The notes under the pieces: model-generated
Seen by the model: the letters and a program-made list of their open reading frames with translations, nothing else
The model's database searches: none
What the model was told of the DNA's origin: nothing
Made by a program: the position numbers and the translations under genes
Shown here: positions 3,969-57,546 of the stretch, piece by piece
How the letters are laid out: each line of letters starts with the position of its first letter
How positions within the stretch are numbered: position 1 is the stretch's first letter
IMG/VR virus record: IMGVR_UViG_3300046171_000107
Coordinates: 1 to 57,546 of that record
Source: a virus
Taxonomy: Duplodnaviria > Caudoviricetes
DNA length: 57,546 nt
Strand: one strand, 5' to 3'

Positions 3969-4436
3969 TTATATAGGACTTATCAAGTCAAAAATAGTTT
4001 CCCACTGAAAAGGCTGTTCACAACGGAAAATTGGCTCGACCGCTTCAAGCCCGTCCATCTTTAAATCGACCGCCGCATTAGCGGGATACAAAAAGCATTC
4101 GGCGGGTTCTGTCGGCTTGGTTTGTTTCTTAATCAATATCCAGCAACTGGCATGGCTATGCCGCGACAGCCACGCGACTTGCGACGGTTGCAGGGTGACG
4201 GCGTTGCCCGTTAAAAATTTTAGTTCGACAAAATGAAAGTCGCCTTTTTCATCGCAGATCATCAGGTCAGGAATACCCGCCCCGACCCAGTTCTCAATCC
4301 GCGTCAGCAGAAATTTCCTGTTCGACCTCTGCGCGGCTTCCTTCACTTGCTTGTAAAAGCCTGCCTCTCGCTTTGTTGCGATTGCTGGTATTTTCGTCTT
4401 TTTCTGTCGGGGTGACGTCGATGGTGATCGGGGCAT
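3969..4436 (-). CDS. VRR-NUC / Holliday-junction-resolvase-like PD-(D/E)XK nuclease
   Basis: E..F...RIEN...GIPDL...FVELK...L.PSQVAW pattern. Start uncertain because it overlaps terS. Confidence 0.8.
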   Translation of the reverse strand: MPRSPSTSPRQKKTKIPAIATKREAGFYKQVKEAAQRSNRKFLLTRIENWVGAGIPDLMICDEKGDFHFVELKFLTGNAVTLQPSQVAWLSRHSHASCWILIKKQTKPTEPAECFLYPANAAVDLKMDGLEAVEPIFRCEQPFQWETIFDLISPI

Positions 4437-4914
4437 AACTATTTTTTATCTCCTCAAGTGCTTTCAGGACATCCTCTTTGCTCATGCTGTCGATTGACCC
4501 ATGACGGATTTCCGATTTGCTGACATAGATGTCGCCTTGCGCTTGCCCCCTGCGATACTCAGCCTGAACGGCGGCAGAATAAGCCCCGTTTTCCAACGCC
4601 ATATCCCGTATGGTCTGTAAATCTCTAAGATGACGCTGATAGGTCACCCCGTATTTTTCATCCAGTTCCCGCCGATACGCCTTTATCGCCGCGACGACAT
4701 GAGGCGACATATGCGGGTTGGTAAGTTCATAAGCCCGTGAGTGCGCCGACCCTGCGGCATAGCCCGCGTTTATCGCGGCTTCTCTCAAAGTTATCTGCCC
4801 GTCTTTGCTTACCAGTTCTTTTACAAAAAGTTCCTGCTTGCGTGTCAGGGCTTGCTCCGCAGTGGCCTTCTTTCGACCCCGCGTCTCAGTCTTTACTACA
4901 GATTTTCTCGCCAT
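4294..4914 (-). CDS. terS: Terminase small subunit
   Basis: LTRKQELFV...AAINAGYA..SAHSRAYEL..P.V is the N-terminal HTH typical of TerS. Start MARKS at 4914. Confidence 0.75.
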   Translation of the reverse strand: MARKSVVKTETRGRKKATAEQALTRKQELFVKELVSKDGQITLREAAINAGYAAGSAHSRAYELTNPHMSPHVVAAIKAYRRELDEKYGVTYQRHLRDLQTIRDMALENGAYSAAVQAEYRRGQAQGDIYVSKSEIRHGSIDSMSKEDVLKALEEIKNSYAPITIDVTPTEKDENTSNRNKARGRLLQASEGSRAEVEQEISADAD

Positions 4915-4960
4915 AATCTTTCCACAGTTAAAAAGGTCTACTTGTCTCTTTAACACAATT

Positions 4961-5192
4961 TACACCTATATAGGCTGAAAAACAAAAAATATTTTTTTTT
5001 GATTTTGGGCGCATTAAGGCAGTTTTGCTATTTAACTCTGTTACATTTTAGTAATTATTGGTGTAACACTTTATGTAACAGAAAAAACCTTTGTATTAAA
5101 ACAACTTAACTACGATGTTACATTTGTTACACCTGTTACACCTATTTTTTAACTTTTTTTATTTTTTATAATTTTGAGCCTATATAGGTGTA
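4961..5192. other. AT-rich non-coding element with 16-bp terminal inverted repeats and TGTTACA iterons; candidate replication origin
   Basis: TACACCTATATAGGCT (4961-4976) and its reverse complement (5177-5192), six TGTTACA/TGTAACA copies, long A/T tracts. Confidence 0.6.
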
Positions 5193-5269
5193 TCGCGTAA
5201 CAACGCCTTTGAAGAGGAGTATTCGTTCTCTGGGTTTTGAGCCGTGATCCGCGGACTTATCTTCGCGCT

Positions 5270-5460: not shown

Positions 5461-5681
5461 ATCTCTGCGTCCTCAGTTAGTTTCGCTTCGATTTTTGGAT
5501 GAGATACCCAACTTTTGATGCCCAGTTCATCGGTTCGTTTGAATTGCTGGTATTGTTCGCGCCAGTATGTTGGGTCTTCATCGTTCCATTCTGCCTCTTC
5601 TGCGTAGAATTGGCAAATTTGCATACAGGCGTAACCTGTAAGCCACCCGTCGGGTGTTCTAGTTATTTGTGGTAAGCGCAT
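5403..5681 (-). CDS. Hypothetical protein
   Basis: ORF with a GGAGG Shine-Dalgarno inside the upstream gene. Confidence 0.55.
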   Translation of the reverse strand: MRLPQITRTPDGWLTGYACMQICQFYAEEAEWNDEDPTYWREQYQQFKRTDELGIKSWVSHPKIEAKLTEDAEIWKNSWTPWAQRHSLSRWQ

Positions 5682-6975
5682 TAAATACTTCCTCCAGCGG
5701 TTTATCTTTGTTTTTTAGGATCATGTCCCTGACCGTATGCACTTTTGGTATCCCGTAGGCTTCGCCTATTTCTTTGAGCGTTCGATATGTTTCGCCGTGA
5801 ATTACATAGGTGCGGTAGGGTTTGGGGCGGCTATGTGGCAGAACATCGGTGGTTAATGCGTCCTCTAATGTCCACCCGCTGTTTCTGACCCGTGAGGCGA
5901 CTAATTTGGGGTTTGCCCCGAAGGCTCGTGATGCGTGGGTCATGGACTTATATTCGACACCGAAGGCGATAACGGCTTTTAGCGGCTTATTATAAGGCGT
6001 GATCCGCGGTTCGATTTCCAAGGCTTGTTCGGCAGACCAGTTCAGCACCGCTATGCGGCGGTGGGCTGTTTTGTAGTCTACCGTGCCGAAGTAGTCGCAA
6101 GCGTCGGTCAATGTAGGGAAGATTTCCCCAGAAACGGATATGTCGGTTATTTTACGGACGGAAAACTTGGTTAGGCCGTGTTCTTTTTTAAGACGGTAGA
6201 GGGTGTGCTTAGCCATACCGTATTTTTTGGTTATATCGTCGTCGGTTGCCCCACCTTTAACCTCTTCGATTATTTGTTGGCGGACGGTGTCGTCGTATCG
6301 GACGGTCATTTCGGCGCGGGTTTTGGTTGCCCCTGCTCGTTGCAGGATTCGGTTTATGGTGCTACGCCGGACATCATATTTGTCGGCTAGTTGTTCGGTG
6401 GTGATTTTGTTTTCGGTGTAGTCGTTGATAACGGCTTGGATTTCATCATCTGACAGTTTGATACCATATCCGCCCATCGGTGCGCCGACTAAGCCGTTTA
6501 GATGGACGGCGTCGGGGAAGGCGGCTTGGACTTTGGCAATGAGCCGTGGTTCGCGGTGCGCGATCTCTGTTGCCTTGTATTTTTTACAGAAGATTTTAAT
6601 TTTGCACGGTTGGTCATTTTTTAGGAAAGCGCGGTAGATGAAGCGGTCTCTTTTATTGACGCCGTCTTTGCCGTCGCGCTTTGCTTTTTGGATGTGTTGT
6701 TTGAACCGCAGTTCGGGGTCTGCGCTTGACCCGATATATATGCCTTTTCCATCGACAGTTAAGGCATAAAGTTGGCAAGGCCTGTCGGCATGACCTGACA
6801 GTTCGGCGGGCGCGAGGGGCTTGAGCCCCAGTTTTTTGCCCCAGTTACGGACGATAGCGTAGTCGTTGTTGGACAGGCCTTTATTTCGGCAGGCCTGTAA
6901 CACGGAGATTTTTTCCTGCGCCGCGTGTTCATACATATCGCGGATTTGTTTGTCGGAAAACTTACGACGGGGCAT
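5659..6975 (-). CDS. GIY-YIG homing-endonuclease-like protein with multiple HTH/NUMOD DNA-binding repeats
   Basis: LYAL...IYIGSS....RFKQH, a conserved E and LN, followed by HTH and F.TL..A...G repeats. Confidence 0.8.
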   Translation of the reverse strand: MPRRKFSDKQIRDMYEHAAQEKISVLQACRNKGLSNNDYAIVRNWGKKLGLKPLAPAELSGHADRPCQLYALTVDGKGIYIGSSADPELRFKQHIQKAKRDGKDGVNKRDRFIYRAFLKNDQPCKIKIFCKKYKATEIAHREPRLIAKVQAAFPDAVHLNGLVGAPMGGYGIKLSDDEIQAVINDYTENKITTEQLADKYDVRRSTINRILQRAGATKTRAEMTVRYDDTVRQQIIEEVKGGATDDDITKKYGMAKHTLYRLKKEHGLTKFSVRKITDISVSGEIFPTLTDACDYFGTVDYKTAHRRIAVLNWSAEQALEIEPRITPYNKPLKAVIAFGVEYKSMTHASRAFGANPKLVASRVRNSGWTLEDALTTDVLPHSRPKPYRTYVIHGETYRTLKEIGEAYGIPKVHTVRDMILKNKDKPLEEVFNALTTNN

Positions 6976-7462: not shown

Positions 7463-7511
7463 ATCATTCTCCCGTAGTTGATATAAGATTTATCCCATAC
7501 ATAATATAAAT

Positions 7512-9758: not shown

Positions 9759-9838
9759 TCCGGTCTCCCGTATAAGAGTTGATAGAAATTATCCCATACC
9801 ATAGGTAAAAAAAGAGGTCAACTACATATAGTAGTTGA

Positions 9839-9997: not shown

Positions 9998-10061
9998 TAA
10001 ATTTATCCCAATATATTGTGTTCTGTAAGCGAATATATAGGAGATATAGTATTAAGGCAAG

Positions 10062-10206: not shown

Positions 10207-12099
10207 TCATTCCGCCTCTCCCCAGCTTGGGCCGATCTCGACGTCACACTTGCTGGGTATCTCTAATGGTACAGCATTTTCCATAATTTTGGCAATACTT
10301 TCTGCATCTTCACGATTTTTCACAGAAATTGCTATCTCATCGTGGATTTGAATGAGCGGGGTGCGCTCTTGTTCATAAATATTCACCATTGCTTGCTTTG
10401 TCATGTCTGCGGCGGACGCTTGGATAAGCCTGTTCAGGGCTTTGTAGGTGTATGCCCGCTTCAAACGGGTGGTCTCACCGTATTCTTTGACGGCATCTTG
10501 GTAGGGCAGAGCCTTATTCATGGCGAATGTATCGGGCTCCCAGAGGTCAAAACGGCACTTTCTGCCCAGTATAGAGCGGACAGAGCCGCTTGAGCCGCGG
10601 TCGTTGAGCCGCGCTTGGACGCCATTCATCAGGCCTTTAACAAAGGGGACACGCTCATGGTACTGACGGACTAGGCCTTTGGCTTCATCTACATCAATAT
10701 CTAGCTGGTCAGACAGTTTGTTCACCCCCATGCCATACATCATGCCAAGATTGATTGTCTTTGCCTGTTTGCGCGGGATCGACGCCATTTCTGCCACCAT
10801 CGTATGGAAGTCCATATTGGGGTCGTTGCGGTAGGCATCGACAAATTCTTCGACGCCAGCCATCTGCTTGCCGCGGGATTTGCCATATACATATGAGTAA
10901 TGCACCAAGATGCGTGGTTCCTGTTGCGAGAAATCAATCGCCGCCCACTGTTCCCCCTCTTCCGGCAGGAACAGGCTACGGATCATCGGGCCAAGTTCTG
11001 GGTCGCGGGCAGGGATTTGCTGCAAATTGGGGTTGGACATGGATATGCGCCCCGATACCGTGCCGCCGTCATCGGAGCGGATCTGGTTGATATGCCCGTG
11101 GATACGCCCGTCACTACGGCAATGCTTCATAATCGTGTTGATAAAGGTGCCGCTGGTCTTGTTCAAGTTGCGGGCTTTAACAATTAGCTGAGCCAGTTCA
11201 TGCGGATGGTCTGCAAGAAATGATTTCGTAAAAGACGGTGCGCCTTTTTCTGTGCGCGGGTAGGCAATGCTTAATTTATCAAAGGCCTTGGCTATTGACG
11301 CCGCCGCCCAGAGCTCTACATCAGAACCAGCCACGGATTTAATCCGTTTGATAACCTCTTTTTCCTGCTTAATTAAATAATTTCTGGTGCGCTCGACACG
11401 GTCTTGGTCAACGCGGACGCCGCGCCATGTCATGTCGATCAGGCAGGGCAGGAGTTTTAGTTCGAGTTCGGCGATAGGCCAGAGGTCTTCTTTAGTCAGT
11501 TGCGTAGACAAGTGATTCCACAAGTCGAGCGTGATTTCTGCGTCGTTCTGGGCATACGGCCCGACATACATAGCGGGCATCTTCCACATCTCAGCTTTTG
11601 GGTCGAGCCCGAACTCGCGGGCGGCCTCCTGTAGTGTCTTCTCTGTTTTAATTTTGCCCAGAAGGTCGTAACAGAGGCTGTTCAGGCTGTAACTGAAGCG
11701 GTTCTCGTCGAGTAGCGCGGCGATTAGCATCGTGTCGATGATTTTGCCGTTTAGCGTGAAGCCCATACGGCGTATCCAGCCCGCATCATATTGTGCGTTG
11801 TGCATGATCTTGTCGGCGGGGCACTCAAATACTTTCTTGAGCCATTTGTTGACGATGCGTTCGTCGAGATTGCCGCCACCAAGGTGGCGGATCGGGATAT
11901 ATCCTGCCCAATCCGCTACCGCGATAGCGTAGCCCACTACCTCACCATCTCCCGTAGGCCATCCGGGGCCGTTTGTCTTGATGTTTGGGTCGCGGGTCTC
12001 GACATCTATAGCAATTTGCTTTGCATCAAAGATGTCGGGTAGCTCTGCGGGTGGCACCCATTCACTCTTGGGGCCGAACATGGTCATCTGTAGTGCCAT
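10207..12099 (-). CDS. polA: Family A DNA polymerase with 3'-5' exonuclease
   Basis: DVET, HNAQYD, YAQND exonuclease motifs; DFSQQEPR, KTINLGMMYG, IHDE polymerase motifs; start coupled TGATG. Confidence 0.95.
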   Translation of the reverse strand: MALQMTMFGPKSEWVPPAELPDIFDAKQIAIDVETRDPNIKTNGPGWPTGDGEVVGYAIAVADWAGYIPIRHLGGGNLDERIVNKWLKKVFECPADKIMHNAQYDAGWIRRMGFTLNGKIIDTMLIAALLDENRFSYSLNSLCYDLLGKIKTEKTLQEAAREFGLDPKAEMWKMPAMYVGPYAQNDAEITLDLWNHLSTQLTKEDLWPIAELELKLLPCLIDMTWRGVRVDQDRVERTRNYLIKQEKEVIKRIKSVAGSDVELWAAASIAKAFDKLSIAYPRTEKGAPSFTKSFLADHPHELAQLIVKARNLNKTSGTFINTIMKHCRSDGRIHGHINQIRSDDGGTVSGRISMSNPNLQQIPARDPELGPMIRSLFLPEEGEQWAAIDFSQQEPRILVHYSYVYGKSRGKQMAGVEEFVDAYRNDPNMDFHTMVAEMASIPRKQAKTINLGMMYGMGVNKLSDQLDIDVDEAKGLVRQYHERVPFVKGLMNGVQARLNDRGSSGSVRSILGRKCRFDLWEPDTFAMNKALPYQDAVKEYGETTRLKRAYTYKALNRLIQASAADMTKQAMVNIYEQERTPLIQIHDEIAISVKNREDAESIAKIMENAVPLEIPSKCDVEIGPSWGEAE

Positions 12100-12200
12100 C
12101 AATCTTTCCTTACTGTGGCCATTTCCTTGCCACATTTAATGAGCACCCAGCCTTGGGCTAGGTACTCTTCCAAATGTTGTATCGGGATGAAGCGAACCAT
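12099..12200 (-). CDS. 33-aa hypothetical protein (MVRFIPIQHLEEYLAQGWVLIKCG...)
   Basis: Fills the gap with TAATG and TGATG overlaps on both sides. Confidence 0.65.
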   Translation of the reverse strand: MVRFIPIQHLEEYLAQGWVLIKCGKEMATVRKD

Positions 12201-12469
12201 TAGTCCTCTCCACCCAGTGCGCCGTAGCCGCAGATATCTACCCAGCTATCTTCATGTTCTGGGGTTACGACGAGCCGTGCCAATTTGACCGCCACCATAC
12301 ATTGGTAGACTTGCGAGACAGAAACCTCTTTGTCCAGAAGCACAGACCACATCTTGGCAATGCGCTCATGGTTTTCGTAGGCATCGCCATAGGCTTTGGC
12401 CCGTGGGCCGTTGACTAGGCTCTCTGCCTTATTAAGAATTTCTTCGCGTTTCATTGCCGAGCTCTTCAT
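12200..12469 (-). CDS. DUF6378-family protein
   Basis: R...YGD...N..RIA..WS...M...KLAR....H.DSWVDICGY. Confidence 0.8.
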   Translation of the reverse strand: MKSSAMKREEILNKAESLVNGPRAKAYGDAYENHERIAKMWSVLLDKEVSVSQVYQCMVAVKLARLVVTPEHEDSWVDICGYGALGGED

Positions 12470-12683
12470 CTAAATTTTGAATGTATCCCCCCCAAAATTC
12501 GTCAATGTCGATTTTTGTGCTGGGGCAGGTGTGGTAAAGCTTTTGTAACAAAGACGCCACCAAATTAGTGTGCGGTTTATGCCAGCCCACATCATTTAAT
12601 TTATGTTCCGCAAGAATGCGAAAAGGCACGGGATCATTAGGGTCTACATCATAATAGCCGTCTGGTTTCATAGTCATATCCAA
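12432..12683 (-). CDS. Hypothetical protein
   Basis: ORF in operon context. Confidence 0.55.
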   Translation of the reverse strand: MDMTMKPDGYYDVDPNDPVPFRILAEHKLNDVGWHKPHTNLVASLLQKLYHTCPSTKIDIDEFWGGYIQNLDEELGNETRRNS

Positions 12684-14203
12684 TAACTCCTGTTCGTGTC
12701 TTCGGGTTCAACCAAGTAGAGGTTCTGCTTGGTTCTGGTTACACCTACATAAAACACTCTATGCAGGTCATCTGGCGCGTGTTCCGCGGCGGATGCGGCG
12801 GCAGGAGACAAGTCTGTATATAGCACAACATTGTCTGCTTCGCCTCCTTTAGATCCGTGGATCGTGGACAATTCAATGCGGGGTATGGCGTTAAACTTTT
12901 CGCCGCGCCGCAGAAGAGCCGTGATGTACGCACGGTCGCTGTCGGGCAATTTATCCATTGCCTCGTGCCATATCATGTCGATAGTGGCTAGCAGGCCGTG
13001 GTTTTGTTGCAGTTCTTCTAGGCTGACTGTTTCGTCGTCATCTACAGCGGGTAATTTCTTAAATCCGCGCTTGACTCTGTCACCGACTGACATATAACTG
13101 TACACGGTTCGTGCGGCCTTTCCGGTTATTCGCTTGCCTTTTCTCATTTGTTCCCAGCCATTGACGGCTTCACTTAGTCTTTCTGAGATTGAGCGATAGC
13201 CTTTCCGGCTAAAAAGGAATCCACGGCTTTTCAAGTCTTCCGCAGTGGAGTCAAGAAAGTATCCGGCTTGAGCCAGCACGAGCCACGAACCCTCAGAAAA
13301 ATCTAGCTGTCCAGTATCTATGATGCGCTGTACTTTGCCTGCGTCTTTGCGTGGCAAGTAGGTCTTTGGTACGCGGCGTCTGATGCGTTGGACAATGCGC
13401 TCTGCTAGCGGATGTACGGTAGCAGGTACGCGGTAGGACTGCTCTAACACTTCGTAGCCGCCATTGAGGCCGATAAAGTGTTCGACATCGGCACCTGCCC
13501 AGCGGTAGATGGCTTGGTCGTCATCCCCAGCGCAGTAGATGCGGTCTGAGTGCTGTTCTAGCACATGAGCCACGTCCCACTGTAGGGGCGACAAGTCCTG
13601 CGCTTCGTCGATGAAAGTTATGGCTAGGCGGGGGCAGAACCCTGCGCCGTCACGCACAAACACTTCCAACATATCGGTGAAGTCGTAGAGGTTAAACCTG
13701 TTCTTATATTCCTGTAAGCCGTCGGCTACATATTTGACATAGCTCCACGACATCGACATTTGTGTCTCGTCATATTGTTGCCGCAAATCAACTTTGCGTA
13801 GGCGGGCGAGGTTAATCAGGCTGATTAGTGGGTTACTATTTTTGTTCAGGTCGAACAGTTCGTCGCCGCTGATCTGAGTTGCATCTACCCGCAAGTCAAT
13901 GCCGCCCAAGGCATGGCCTAGTTCTTTGTAGTGCTCTGCCTGCATGACCTGTTCTTGGCGAATACCGGACAACTTTAAGGCAAAACTGTGCAGAGTGCGG
14001 AACCACGGCAGTTGTGATTTATCTAGTTTGAAGCGAGTGCAAGCGCGTTCGACAGCCTCGTTAGCCGCTTGGCGGGTAAAGGCAAAGTAGCCGATATGAG
14101 CGGGGTTTACGCCTGCTTCTAACGCCTCGTCTACTTTGTTGAGCAGGGCGGTAGTCTTTCCTGTTCCGGGCGGGCCGTATATACGGAATATCTTAGTATC
14201 CAT
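12674..14203 (-). CDS. UvrD-like SF1 DNA helicase
   Basis: GPPGTGKT, TLHS, DEAQD, GDDDQAIY, QSYR, TIHGSKGGEAD, YVGVTR. Confidence 0.92.
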   Translation of the reverse strand: MDTKIFRIYGPPGTGKTTALLNKVDEALEAGVNPAHIGYFAFTRQAANEAVERACTRFKLDKSQLPWFRTLHSFALKLSGIRQEQVMQAEHYKELGHALGGIDLRVDATQISGDELFDLNKNSNPLISLINLARLRKVDLRQQYDETQMSMSWSYVKYVADGLQEYKNRFNLYDFTDMLEVFVRDGAGFCPRLAITFIDEAQDLSPLQWDVAHVLEQHSDRIYCAGDDDQAIYRWAGADVEHFIGLNGGYEVLEQSYRVPATVHPLAERIVQRIRRRVPKTYLPRKDAGKVQRIIDTGQLDFSEGSWLVLAQAGYFLDSTAEDLKSRGFLFSRKGYRSISERLSEAVNGWEQMRKGKRITGKAARTVYSYMSVGDRVKRGFKKLPAVDDDETVSLEELQQNHGLLATIDMIWHEAMDKLPDSDRAYITALLRRGEKFNAIPRIELSTIHGSKGGEADNVVLYTDLSPAAASAAEHAPDDLHRVFYVGVTRTKQNLYLVEPEDTNRSYWI

Positions 14204-14561
14204 CGGGTAACTCGTAACCGTGTTGAGCTAACTTTGTTTTAATCTCCCGCAGACTTACTTTGCCTAAGTTTGGTATCCTGCGAAGGTCGTTTGTTTTGGT
14301 GTATTCAACAAACTCCGCTAGGAACATCGGCGTGAGGTTTTCGTTACGTAGGCAGTTATACGTCCTGCGAGTCCATTGAATGTTGAAAACCCGAACAGGT
14401 GTTTCTGGAAAGTTTTTCTCAAGCTCGTTATCTTTGCCCACTTTTCTTACTATTTGGCGTACCCGCTCACGACTAATTGCATATTTATTGGCAATAGCTT
14501 GAAGCGTTCTCTTTTCTTCTACCCGTTCTCTGTAGATTTCCTGATTTCTAGTCAACATCAT
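14193..14561 (-). CDS. Sigma70 region 4 HTH fused to an RNA polymerase alpha-CTD-like domain
   Basis: TLQAIANKYAISRERVRQI (sigma4) plus RTYNCLRNE...LRRIPNLGKVSLREIK (alpha-CTD). Confidence 0.8.
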   Translation of the reverse strand: MMLTRNQEIYRERVEEKRTLQAIANKYAISRERVRQIVRKVGKDNELEKNFPETPVRVFNIQWTRRTYNCLRNENLTPMFLAEFVEYTKTNDLRRIPNLGKVSLREIKTKLAQHGYELPDGY

Positions 14562-14790
14562 ACAACTCCTCCACGTTGTTGACTCGCTTCACAAACAAAG
14601 GTGTGGTATCTCCCACCCATGCCCCGACTACGTTGTAGTACATAAAGTCCACAGCCTCATCTATGCTCATGTTGTCTCGCTCACATAGAATGGCTACGCA
14701 TTTATCAAAGTCATACACCACTATGGGGGGTTGCCCCGCCCTTTCTCCCATGCCGATAACGGCATCATTAAATCCGTCCGCTAGTAACAT
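14548..14790 (-). CDS. Conserved phage hypothetical protein
   Basis: ADGF.DA.IG...VYD...EA.DF..YNV.GAWVG..TP pattern. Confidence 0.75.
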   Translation of the reverse strand: MLLADGFNDAVIGMGERAGQPPIVVYDFDKCVAILCERDNMSIDEAVDFMYYNVVGAWVGDTTPLFVKRVNNVEELYDVD

Positions 14791-16331
14791 TAGAAAGGTG
14801 CCTCCGTTTGTTCTGACCCAAAGTTAGGGCTGTTAAACTCAATATCTCCTGACTCAAATGCTGGAACCTGCCATACCCTGACAGTTCGAGACTTGATGCG
14901 CAGAACAGTGCTGTCGCCGCCCCTGTCCCGTAGACGCTGGGCTATCTTGTGTGACTTGTACTCAAAGAACTTGTTGCGCTTCAGGAAGGACTCAAAGTCT
15001 TTAAGGCGGAAATATGTCACGCCCTCTTCCTCATCTGTCCAAGGCCGCTTGAGCAGGATCTCCTCTTTGTCATTAGCCTTCTGCATATGAGCGCAGAACT
15101 CTTCCAAGTAATCGTAGAATTGACCGCTGATGCTGGCATCTTCCGCCACTTCCATAATTGCGCTTTCGTTGTCGCGCATCTCATTCATCAAAGCACCGAT
15201 ACGCCCCTCCCAAATCTGCTTGCTGACAGAGCGTGGCATGAAGTTAAGTTGCTCCATACAGGCCTTCTGGAATACCGGCTGGCTCATCAGAGCCTCTGTA
15301 TCAAGTTCTACGGGCTCCCCGTTTACATCCACAAACCAGACGGGCGGGACAGAGTTGTATTTACGCAGGTTAGCGATAGCCGCGCCTTGAATAGCCGCCC
15401 CGACACCGTGCTTACGGGTCTGACACAATTCTTTGTTACAGTGCGCGTTGATAGGCGCATCACTACACTTATATGTGTAGTCTTTGCGGTTTAGCTGCTT
15501 GGTTATCACAGTGACTTCGTTGATAGCCAAGGGCGGATCTAAGTATTGCAGGTTGTATGTCATAATTTCGGTCTCCCAGCTATCTGGGTAGGCCTTGCGT
15601 ACATACACGCCTAAATTAAACAGCCCGTTGTTGCGGGCACCTTCGCCTATTTTGTTTTTAACCAGAAACTGTAGACAGGGCGGCCCGTCTTTTAGCGTGG
15701 CAGACTCCGCCTCGTCACCTATTTGCAGTTGCAGTAACTGCTCTGGTGTCTGCTTGTGCGTCTCATATAACTCAAAGAACTCGTCGAGCGTGGCAGACGT
15801 GCCGTCATCTTTAATCGCGTAGCGTAGGCCGTCTTCCGCGTCGTAATAAGGTAGGTTCAGGAAGTTGCCAACATCGTCGCGGTCAAGATGCAGTTTTACC
15901 TGCTTTGGAAATATCTCACTGCCGCCATATCCCAATGCGGCAGAAATCTGTTGCAGGGTAGCCTGCATATCTTTGGCTTCTACCCACTCTGTAGTGAACA
16001 GGAAGCAGTGTGCGCCGCCGGACTTAGAGCGGCAGACAACAAGCGGTAGTTTTAACTTACGGATCTTTTCTACCAGTAGCTTGTGGTCAAGCGGATACTG
16101 GTCAACATCAATACAACCCCAGACACAGTTGTTGTCTTCGTTAATCGGAATAATACCAATAGCACGGCCTTTGCCGGACAGGTGCCCTTCCCAAAGTGCC
16201 GTGGTGCGCGGTTCGCGCATGATAGCGGCACGGCCCGTGTTCTTCCCGTTGGCCTGCTTCTTTTCGACTTTATATGTGCCGTAGGCCAACTGTAGGCCAT
16301 TAAATACGGCGGAAAACTTTTCTACAGACAT
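14790..16331 (-). CDS. AEP-superfamily primase with PriCT-like domain
   Basis: CIDVD, SKSGGAH, GNFLNLPY, GARNNGLF motifs. Confidence 0.8.
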   Translation of the reverse strand: MSVEKFSAVFNGLQLAYGTYKVEKKQANGKNTGRAAIMREPRTTALWEGHLSGKGRAIGIIPINEDNNCVWGCIDVDQYPLDHKLLVEKIRKLKLPLVVCRSKSGGAHCFLFTTEWVEAKDMQATLQQISAALGYGGSEIFPKQVKLHLDRDDVGNFLNLPYYDAEDGLRYAIKDDGTSATLDEFFELYETHKQTPEQLLQLQIGDEAESATLKDGPPCLQFLVKNKIGEGARNNGLFNLGVYVRKAYPDSWETEIMTYNLQYLDPPLAINEVTVITKQLNRKDYTYKCSDAPINAHCNKELCQTRKHGVGAAIQGAAIANLRKYNSVPPVWFVDVNGEPVELDTEALMSQPVFQKACMEQLNFMPRSVSKQIWEGRIGALMNEMRDNESAIMEVAEDASISGQFYDYLEEFCAHMQKANDKEEILLKRPWTDEEEGVTYFRLKDFESFLKRNKFFEYKSHKIAQRLRDRGGDSTVLRIKSRTVRVWQVPAFESGDIEFNSPNFGSEQTEAPF

Positions 16332-16340
16332 GACGCCCCC

Positions 16341-16381
16341 AAAAGAAAAAGGGTGACGTTATAACGCTATAACGCCACCCC
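16341..16381 (-). terminator. Rho-independent terminator
   Basis: GGGTGGCGTTATA-gcgt-TATAACGTCACCC followed by TTTTTCTTTT. Confidence 0.8.
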
Positions 16382-16387
16382 AGTTAC

Positions 16388-17179
16388 TTAGAACGGCACG
16401 TCGTCGGAGAGGTTTTCTCCGCTAACATTATCGTCCTGATGCTTCACAACAACGTCACCTGACTGGATACTTGCGTTGAACTCTTTTGCACGGTTGTACA
16501 GGTTCATATCCTCGACAGGACCGACGCGGCTCATTTCCCAGCCGTGCCAGCTACCTTTGCTGTTTTCTTCCAGTTGCGTCTTGAGGTGGTAAACATGGCT
16601 AAAACGTGGCGGGGTAAACGGCCCATTCTTGCCCTGCATTGTTACCGAAGACACCATGCTGTTCCATTTTCTGGACTTCTTTAGCTGGGTGGACTTCATC
16701 GCAATCAACGCAGTCTCAGCAGAGCCGTCGTCGTTAAGGACGATGACAAAGTGCTGGTGCGTCTCTTCGATGTACTGACCGGATCCGTCGTTGACGTATT
16801 CCTTGTTGTCATCAACAGACCGCTCAGTTTTTGGCATCTTTTCACCCGGTGAGTAGATAGCCACGGGAGCGCCCGTTCCTTCGCCTCTAGGGGCCCATTG
16901 GATGAACCGACGCTGGTAGGCTACCGGAATGACGTTGATGCCATCCTTGCCTTTGTAAACCATGCCAGAGACACTGTTCAGGATGTCACCCTTACGGGCG
17001 TCTTCTAGGTCGTCAAGCTCCTTGCTCATACCACCCAGAATTTTCAGGAATGGCAGGGCAAGATCATCTTGACCCATATTTTCCAGACCAACACCAGCAT
17101 CGGCCTCAAACATAGTTGGGTCGAACTGGACGATTTCAGCAGTTTTCTGCTCTGCTACAGCATTCTTTTTCTCAGCCAT
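16388..17179 (-). CDS. Putative single-stranded DNA-binding protein
   Basis: Located in the replication module; acidic DDVPF C-terminus; start MAEKK with GAGGAG Shine-Dalgarno. Confidence 0.65.
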   Translation of the reverse strand: MAEKKNAVAEQKTAEIVQFDPTMFEADAGVGLENMGQDDLALPFLKILGGMSKELDDLEDARKGDILNSVSGMVYKGKDGINVIPVAYQRRFIQWAPRGEGTGAPVAIYSPGEKMPKTERSVDDNKEYVNDGSGQYIEETHQHFVIVLNDDGSAETALIAMKSTQLKKSRKWNSMVSSVTMQGKNGPFTPPRFSHVYHLKTQLEENSKGSWHGWEMSRVGPVEDMNLYNRAKEFNASIQSGDVVVKHQDDNVSGENLSDDVPF

Positions 17180-57245: not shown

Positions 57246-57546
57246 GGCCCTTGCCTGCGCAGCCAGAGCCCGTGGCCGCGTTGCGCGATTTTTGGTAAAT
57301 GATTGATTTATCACGGTTTTTGACCCGATACCGGAATCCTAGTTTTTAAGGCCGCCGCCCGCGTTTCGACGCCCGCCGCCCGCGTATCATGCGCCGCGCT
57401 ATTCGCCCCGCGTTGCCCGTGCCGCGTTCCGCCGCCCGTGAAAATTTTTAAAAATACCGACGCCCGCGCCCCGCGTTTTTTGGATTGCGCCCCGCCGTGA
57501 TTTTTCCGCCGTATGTTTTACGCAATCCCCGCCCCGCCGCCCGCGG
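57246..57546. repeat. Terminal direct repeat, right copy
   Basis: Identical to 1-301. Confidence 0.95.

Follow-up and report, generated by a model that had tools for sequence, protein, structure and literature searches.

The stretch of DNA analysed here (the window, 57,546 bp) is a complete virus record of the Caudoviricetes, IMG/VR IMGVR_UViG_3300046171_000107, which has terminal repeats and a completeness estimate of 100%, and whose minus strand carries nearly every gene. The subject of this study is a small gene embedded in the primase-helicase-polymerase operon of this phage. [quoted passage not shown] The gene shares overlapping stop and start codons with its neighbours and has its own GGAGG site (Table 1). 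It is a real gene, as indicated by the ribosome site, the translational coupling to both neighbours and a ratio of non-synonymous to synonymous substitutions (dN/dS) of about 0.1 in both domains.

An earlier note on this DNA, made from the letters alone, had proposed a fusion of sigma region 4 and alpha-CTD in a single 122-aa open reading frame (ORF), and both modules indeed pass the gathering scores of their Pfam families. PF04545 (Sigma70_r4) matches residues 5-40 with 29.7 bits against a gathering score of 24.1 (E 4.6e-7), and PF03118 (RNA_pol_A_CTD) matches residues 56-112 with 39.1 bits against 23.8 (E 6.2e-10). The motifs that had been quoted are present as well: SRERVRQI at residues 30-37, R..NCL as R66/N69-C70-L71 and NLGKVS at residues 98-103. 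Both matches recur in a six-frame search of the whole record (30.9 bits for Sigma70_r4), which contains no further alpha-CTD; two other sigma-4-like HTHs, both sub-threshold, lie within a GIY-YIG endonuclease gene. When a profile of 22 relatives was compared with the PDB, alpha subunits gave the best match (E 2e-8) and sigma factors were also found (RpoH, E 3.9e-4). The 122 residues of P0001 have no Pfam match to sigma region 2. Among the NCBIfam sigma models RpoH does best, with 26.7 bits where 323.1 are required, and the RpoA model TIGR02027 reaches 40 bits against a cut-off of 227.8, with only residues 44-119 matching, at the C-terminal end of the model. Because the NCBIfam RpoA and sigma models match by their C-terminal ends only, far below cut-off, P0001 is neither an alpha subunit nor a sigma factor.

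AlphaFold modelling, suggested in the earlier note as a check on the domains, gave a confident structure of six helices from a 22-row alignment (mean predicted local distance difference test, pLDDT, 88.4; predicted template modelling score, pTM, 0.55), and both folds were matched in the PDB. When the model was compared with 48,161 PDB representatives by VIA-align, the top match was the Bacillus subtilis alpha-CTD 1z3e_B (Z 9.4, root-mean-square deviation (rmsd) 2.0 A, 65 of its 67 residues, model residues 52-119). Residues 1-54 matched many sigma domain-4 chains over about 50 residues (Z 6-8, rmsd 1.4-2.6 A), including sigma-E region 4 on -35 DNA (2h27_D, Z 7.5) and sigma-32 (8hkc_E, Z 6.5, rmsd 1.4 A, 37% identity). 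Given that a Z below 8 for a three-helix HTH can reflect a common arrangement, the assignment to sigma-4 relies above all on the Pfam score and on the identity of the recognition helix. With Foldseek, the whole P0001 model had no PDB match at E <= 0.001; isolated alpha-CTD chains align to it at 2.0-2.4 A, and the second domain makes full-length RpoA chains align poorly. A predicted complex of two P0001 copies scored 0.00, which gives no verdict, and no conclusion was taken from it.

Alignment of the E. coli rpoA and rpoD proteins to the family profile places P0001 residues 15-41 on sigma70 568-594 and residues 57-118 on alpha 256-314. In the recognition helix, S30-R31-E32-R33-V34-R35-Q36-I37 aligns to sigma70 T583-R584-E585-R586-I587-R588-Q589-I590, so that residues 31-36 are identical to R584-Q589 except for an aliphatic V34 in place of I587. 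P0001 thereby shows the R-E-R-x-R-Q motif typical of the recognition helix in sigma factors of groups 1-3. The DNA-binding 265 determinant of alpha comprises residues 265, 268, 294, 296, 298, 299 and 302, as listed in an excerpt of PMC10853779. Six of these seven are identical in P0001, where R66, N69, C70, N98, G100, S103 and E106 correspond to R265, N268, C269, N294, G296, S299 and E302 (C269 being additional to the determinant), and V102 replaces K298. The picture is different for the surfaces through which alpha touches other proteins. According to an excerpt of PMC1874639, the 261 determinant contacts sigma, and the 287 determinant contacts CAP and other activators. The acidic 261 patch (D258/D259/E261) is not kept in P0001, which has F59/N60/Q62, nor is the 287 patch (T285-L289), which reads T88/K89/N91/D92/L93.

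The same distinction is seen across relatives. Conservation was counted in 22 close relatives and in 37 distant two-domain relatives, the latter hand-picked from 150 listed profile matches as small proteins matched over both domains, with long multi-stretch proteins left out. The sigma70 base-contacting positions are kept, in close and distant sets respectively, in 22/22 and 22/37 (R584), 21/22 and 30/37 (E585), 22/22 and 32/37 (R586), 22/22 and 32/37 (R588) and 22/22 and 31/37 (Q589); R31, R33, R35, Q36 and I37 are invariant in all 22 close relatives. For the alpha positions, the corresponding counts are 17/22 and 33/37 (R265), 22/22 and 25/37 (N268), 21/22 and 31/37 (N294), 21/22 and 36/37 (G296), 3/22 and 20/37 (K298) and 14/22 and 25/37 (S299). 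Among the close relatives, the D258 equivalent is D in 2/22, the E261 equivalent is P or Q in 15/22 and the E286 equivalent is K or R in 18/22. By these counts, the predicted DNA-contacting positions are the best kept, and the alpha-CTD surfaces that would face other proteins have drifted.

Selection on the gene was estimated from 7 close alleles (21 pairs). The overall dN/dS is 0.19; the HTH has 0.12, the alpha-CTD 0.10 and the linker (residues 41-63) 0.41. The purifying selection at 0.12 and 0.10 indicates that both modules are functional and constrained. The slot protein, by which we mean the protein encoded between primase and helicase, was compared in the 40 loci that have a two-domain match together with one or more flanking genes; in all 40 it is less similar to that of the window than either flanking protein (median identity 56.8% vs 80.8%). 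This excess divergence appears to lie mostly in the linker, at least among close alleles.

P0001 belongs to a family that is recurrent in phages and unstudied. A word-indexed search returned 22 clusters at E <= 0.001 from 25 candidates, with identities of 33-100%, and an exhaustive profile search returned 4,677 proteins at E <= 0.001, 259 of them at E <= 1e-10. Among the 150 profile matches listed, many are proteins of 120-215 aa in which both domains are matched in one stretch, and the two-domain layout occurs in many 50%-identity clusters. The P0001 lineage represents a minimal form of 121-125 aa, without an XRE domain. Alpha-CTD-like arrays are also found in long metagenomic proteins (P0024, P0039, P0045, P0053 and P0061): P0024, of 1031 aa, has 11 matched alpha-CTD-like stretches, P0053 combines sigma-4 with three alpha-CTD stretches and P0061 has two stretches of each domain. 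Such arrays indicate that the alpha-CTD fold is widely used as a modular DNA-binding unit outside RpoA. In representative cellular genomes 12 loci were matched, only one of which, in a Lachnospiraceae metagenome-assembled genome, spans both domains.

The genomic slot of P0001 was followed in the best 80 of 97 relatives from an IMG/VR scan, by tblastn with the neighbouring proteins of the window. Its position is kept in 67 of the 80 loci, in the order primase, sometimes the 80-aa phrog_13182 gene, slot gene and UvrD-like helicase, with a family-A DNA polymerase further downstream; two-domain relatives outside the primase-helicase slot were found in L042 and L044-L046. Of 64 untruncated slot proteins, 39 consist of HTH plus alpha-CTD and 25 are HTH-only proteins of 47-68 aa. 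An additional C-terminal HTH is present in 5 of the 39 two-domain proteins (L009-L013). The two-domain and HTH-only forms are interleaved relative to primase identity; for instance, L047 has a primase 87% identical to that of the window and an HTH-only slot protein. In sister phages the slot is filled by an HTH-only protein, so the alpha-CTD is an accessory module rather than the essence of the function. These data fit a sigma-4-type HTH as the constant core, to which many lineages add an alpha-CTD-type clamp on minor groove and backbone. The presence of HTH-only, two-domain and second-HTH variants in one slot is how a modular DNA binder behaves.

A C-terminal tail motif of the form D-V-S-N-L-W/R-T-A-G-H-G-x-N-Y-N was recognised by pattern scoring in 18 of the 39 two-domain slot proteins; it is absent from P0001. 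The motif is also joined directly to HTH-only slot proteins. Its carriers are L022-L046, L055, L060, L061, L063, L065, L069 and L070, together with P0033, P0038, P0044, P0048, P0049 and P0067, and it is possible that it acts as a protein-docking peptide.

The nearest GenBank phage is DSL-LC04, whose primase is 52.7% identical, and whose slot holds an 85-aa coding sequence annotated as 'RNA polymerase sigma-G factor'. According to PMC10611076, DSL-LC04 is a metagenome-assembled phage of the proposed family 'Dishuiviridae' with a predicted Pseudomonadota host. The P0001 slot belongs to this 'Dishuiviridae'-like aquatic phage group. Comparison of window positions 12000-17000 with GenBank phages by megablast gave no match, and tblastn of P0001 against the same phages matched nothing but two rpoA genes, from records bearing the name Acinetobacter phage MD-2021a. 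Several family names are misleading: the HTH-only form L082 (6518-6775, OR003939) is called 'RNA polymerase sigma-G factor', and two-domain relatives are labelled 'DNA-directed RNA polymerase alpha subunit' in IMG, a domain-level transfer.

The phage appears to depend on host RNAP. The earlier note had described it as having no polymerase of its own, and none was found: the T7-type RNAP family PF00940 has no match in the genome (control genomes were likewise unmatched), and Pfam scans of the largest unannotated ORFs gave no RNAP domain. Many terminator-like sites occur on the coding strand of the small-gene region at 1-10 kb. The extended -10-like motif TGNGATAAW is found 9 times (8 times on the coding strand), where 3.0 +/- 1.9 would be expected; a count of 9 was reached in 1 of 100 shuffles. 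Five of these sites were read as intergenic, and in three of them no more than 3 of 6 positions match the -35 hexamer at 16-18 nt spacing. Several of the genes that lie downstream of TGNGATAAW motifs are preceded by a conserved ACTACGGGAG leader. Promoters of consensus type also occur (Table 1), and TTGACA is mildly depleted in the window, 98 of 100 shuffles having at least 22 copies.

Other features of the genome deserve mention. A non-coding AT-rich, iteron-like region of 280 bp is a candidate packaging site or origin. TGTAACA is clustered there, 6 of the 12 copies in the genome lying within 5039-5140; the cluster was considered as a P0001 target and left unassigned to the protein, since it is directly upstream of a small-terminase-like gene. 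The GIY-YIG nuclease mentioned above, a 438-aa protein encoded at 5659-6975 on the minus strand with several HTHs, two of them weakly sigma-4-like, resembles a homing endonuclease inserted beside the AT-rich region. The terminal direct repeat of about 200 bp (1-202 and 57345-57546) is GC-rich with GCGGGCGGCGG-type repeats, and the palindrome TGTTTCACGTGAAACA and three GTGCA(A/T) repeats lie downstream, between it and the large terminase gene.

Table 1. Position of the P0001 gene, its modules and neighbours, and of other features of the window.
Feature	Position	Strand	Remarks
P0001 gene	14193..14561	-	122 aa; tandem ATG ATG start, TAA stop
Shine-Dalgarno sequence GGAGGAG	14566..14572	-	4 nt before first ATG, within 3' end of preceding gene
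Sigma70_r4-type HTH, residues 5-40	14442..14549	-	Pfam, six-frame search, alignment, fold
Variable linker, about residues 41-55	14397..14441	-	end of long helix 31-49 plus loop; pLDDT 70-76
Alpha-CTD-like (helix-hairpin-helix) domain, residues 56-112	14226..14396	-	Pfam, six-frame search, alignment, fold
UvrD-like helicase gene	12674..14203	-	directly downstream; start overlaps end of P0001 gene by 11 nt
80-aa gene, function unknown, phrog_13182	14548..14790	-	directly upstream; end overlaps start of P0001 gene by 14 nt
Primase gene, phrog_21866	14790..16331	-	upstream boundary of conserved slot
TGNGATAAW motifs following terminators	1538-1546, 2825-2833, 7489-7497, 9788-9796, 10002-10010	-	mostly poor -35 hexamers
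Consensus-type promoter TTGACA-17-TATATA	~8150	-	
Consensus-type promoter TTGACA-16-TATATT	17799	+	
AT-rich non-coding region, 280 bp, iteron-like	4957-5236		bracketed by 32-nt inverted repeats 4961-4992 and 5161-5192
Small-terminase-like gene	4294-4956		PF03592, 27.7 bits; directly downstream of AT-rich region

The closest known parallel to P0001 is the RNAP holoenzyme, in which alpha-CTD and sigma region 4 lie side by side on UP/-35 DNA (PDB 3N97; 1LB2, 3N4M). P0001 has the same two folds, and Foldseek matches its model to, among others, 3n97_C, 3n4m_B and 1lb2_E. The DNA-contacting residues are alike in both, as described above for sigma70 R584-Q589 and for the 265 determinant. Unlike the holoenzyme, P0001 carries both modules on one 122-aa chain, sigma-4 first and alpha-CTD second, lacks the alpha N-terminal domain and sigma regions 1-3 and does not keep the acidic 261 determinant. 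Phage proteins that interfere with promoter recognition offer another comparison. T4 AsiA and phage G1 gp67 bind the region 4 of host sigma, a protein target. The sigmaA domain-4 chain of PDB 4G6D, in which gp67 is bound to sigmaA domain 4, is among the structural and profile matches of P0001. If P0001 occludes promoters, the outcome would be alike, a phage-directed selective loss of -35- or UP-dependent transcription that spares other promoter classes. AsiA and gp67 have no sequence or fold relation to P0001, which itself copies region 4 and alpha-CTD and would act on the DNA side. Finally, Mor/C of Mu (PF08765) and KorA/TrfB of IncP plasmids (PF16509) are, like P0001, small HTH proteins from mobile elements; they control promoter use, as P0001 is proposed to do. 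These families are without an alpha-CTD module, and P0001 scores below both cut-offs (17.2 bits vs 24.9 for Mor and 16.2 vs 26.7 for KorA/TrfB, with a KorA fold match at Z 6.6).

On these grounds, the reading that we favour, with our confidence in it evenly balanced, is that P0001 is a free-standing two-module DNA-binding regulator of transcription, predicted to compete at -35/UP-dependent promoters. P0001 would be made while the phage replicates, in the middle phase of infection. Major-groove reading of a -35-like hexamer would fall to the N-terminal HTH, whose base-contacting residues are identical to those of sigma70, and the C-terminal domain, with its counterpart of the 265 determinant, would clamp the backbone and the minor groove of an A/T-rich tract next to the hexamer. 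A flexible, fast-evolving linker may turn two weak binders into one stronger reader of UP and -35 DNA. As the recognition helix carries the base-reading residues of sigma70, a -35-like hexamer beside an A/T tract is the simplest prediction for the site. The likeliest outcome would be competition with sigma70 holoenzyme at -35/UP-dependent promoters, of the host or of the early phage genes, and the extended -10 promoters of the phage might be spared or less affected. A bolder version, in which this one-piece UP/-35 reader shuts off strong host promoters such as those of rRNA, and the phage's own early consensus promoters, while extended -10 promoters fire on, seems to us rather unlikely.

A number of observations weigh against the reading of P0001 as a promoter competitor. 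No binding site for P0001 was identified in the phage genome, and TTGACA is not enriched in the window (22 copies vs 31 +/- 4.9 expected). The argument from extended -10 promoters is circumstantial, since it draws solely on matches to a consensus, and at two of the five intergenic TGNGATAAW sites the -35 hexamer is matched at 4/6. Within the protein, the position of K298 is occupied by V (V or I in 17 of 22 close relatives), 5 of these 22 have lost the counterpart of R265, and the pTM of 0.55 leaves the orientation between the modules undefined. The role of sigma70 R584, E585, R586, R588 and Q589 as -35-contacting residues is as reportedly described by Campbell et al. in 2002. As for the locus, the position in a replication operon fits a replication role equally well, and the slot of phage 023Pt_psg01, a GenBank relative, has no annotated gene, which means that the function is dispensable in at least one lineage.

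Among the competing explanations, an activator comes first, on the strength of weak PHROG and Pfam similarity, followed by replication, for which only gene position speaks, and then by a decoy. As an activator, P0001 would bind upstream of late or middle phage promoters with a poor -35 and recruit or stabilise host RNAP, in the manner of Mor/C-type late activators, small HTH proteins of other phages; we consider this unlikely. In PHROG, the HTH comes closest to 'late transcriptional activator' families (phrog_836, E 1.6e-4; phrog_532, E 0.036), the Pfam Mor score points in the same direction, and Mor is found on 41% of the members of a neighbouring ESM-Atlas cluster (score 0.88, a lead only); however, all the PHROG and Pfam matches are under the family thresholds and extend over the generic HTH only. 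Phage promoters with poor -35 hexamers do exist, and presumed expression with the replication genes is the usual timing for late activators. Nevertheless, no repeated candidate site was found upstream of the structural gene block, and the alpha-CTD surfaces that contact other parts of RNAP are not conserved. A role in replication, in which P0001 would bind an origin or other replication-linked DNA and help to load the UvrD-like helicase or the primase, is in our view quite improbable. The strict conservation of the primase-helicase position (67/80 loci), the translational coupling to both neighbours and the iteron-like region at 4957-5236 would agree with it. Yet that region immediately precedes a small-terminase-like gene, which makes a packaging site no less likely, and two-domain relatives also occur outside this context. 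Moreover, the slot protein is highly variable in architecture and without annotated counterpart in 023Pt_psg01, unlike the core replication genes that flank it.

The least supported explanation, and one that we hold to be very improbable, is a decoy whose alpha-CTD and sigma region 4 titrate host activators, anti-sigma-like or other docking proteins, or dock on RNAP. It is true that activators contact RNAP mainly on these two modules, as is generally known and as an excerpt of PMC1874639 also indicates, and the slot gene diverges more than its neighbours in all 40 loci compared, as host-interaction genes typically do. That faster divergence is, however, concentrated in the linker, the slot holds an HTH-only protein in 25 of 64 loci, and normal assembly into RNAP is impossible without sigma region 2 and the alpha N-terminal domain. 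The main point is that the DNA-contact residues are conserved and the 261 and 287 equivalents are not. Thus, of the possibilities raised in the earlier note, occlusion of promoters by DNA reading gains from the kept DNA-contact residues, and titration of activators loses from the surfaces that were not kept.

A search of the literature for a sigma-4/alpha-CTD fusion found no description, and the word sigma is absent from the main text of the DSL-LC04 paper (PMC10611076), supplementary annotation tables aside. What is new here is the minimal 122-aa form in a fixed slot of the replication module, a set of sister phages, some having the alpha-CTD and others lacking it, that forms a natural series in which the contribution of each module could be dissected, and residue-level evidence that the constraint is on DNA contacts and not on protein contacts. 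The family is widespread in phage contigs and usually mislabelled, and a tested function would correct many annotations. Should P0001 read UP/-35-like DNA by itself, phages would be reusing the promoter-recognition modules of the host polymerase as a stand-alone regulator. Transcription could thereby be controlled by promoter class in a simple way, and synthetic biology would gain a compact natural two-module DNA reader. If occlusion proves to be true, P0001 would be the counterpart, on the DNA side, of T4 AsiA and G1 gp67, and would have arisen through the capture of host promoter-recognition modules.

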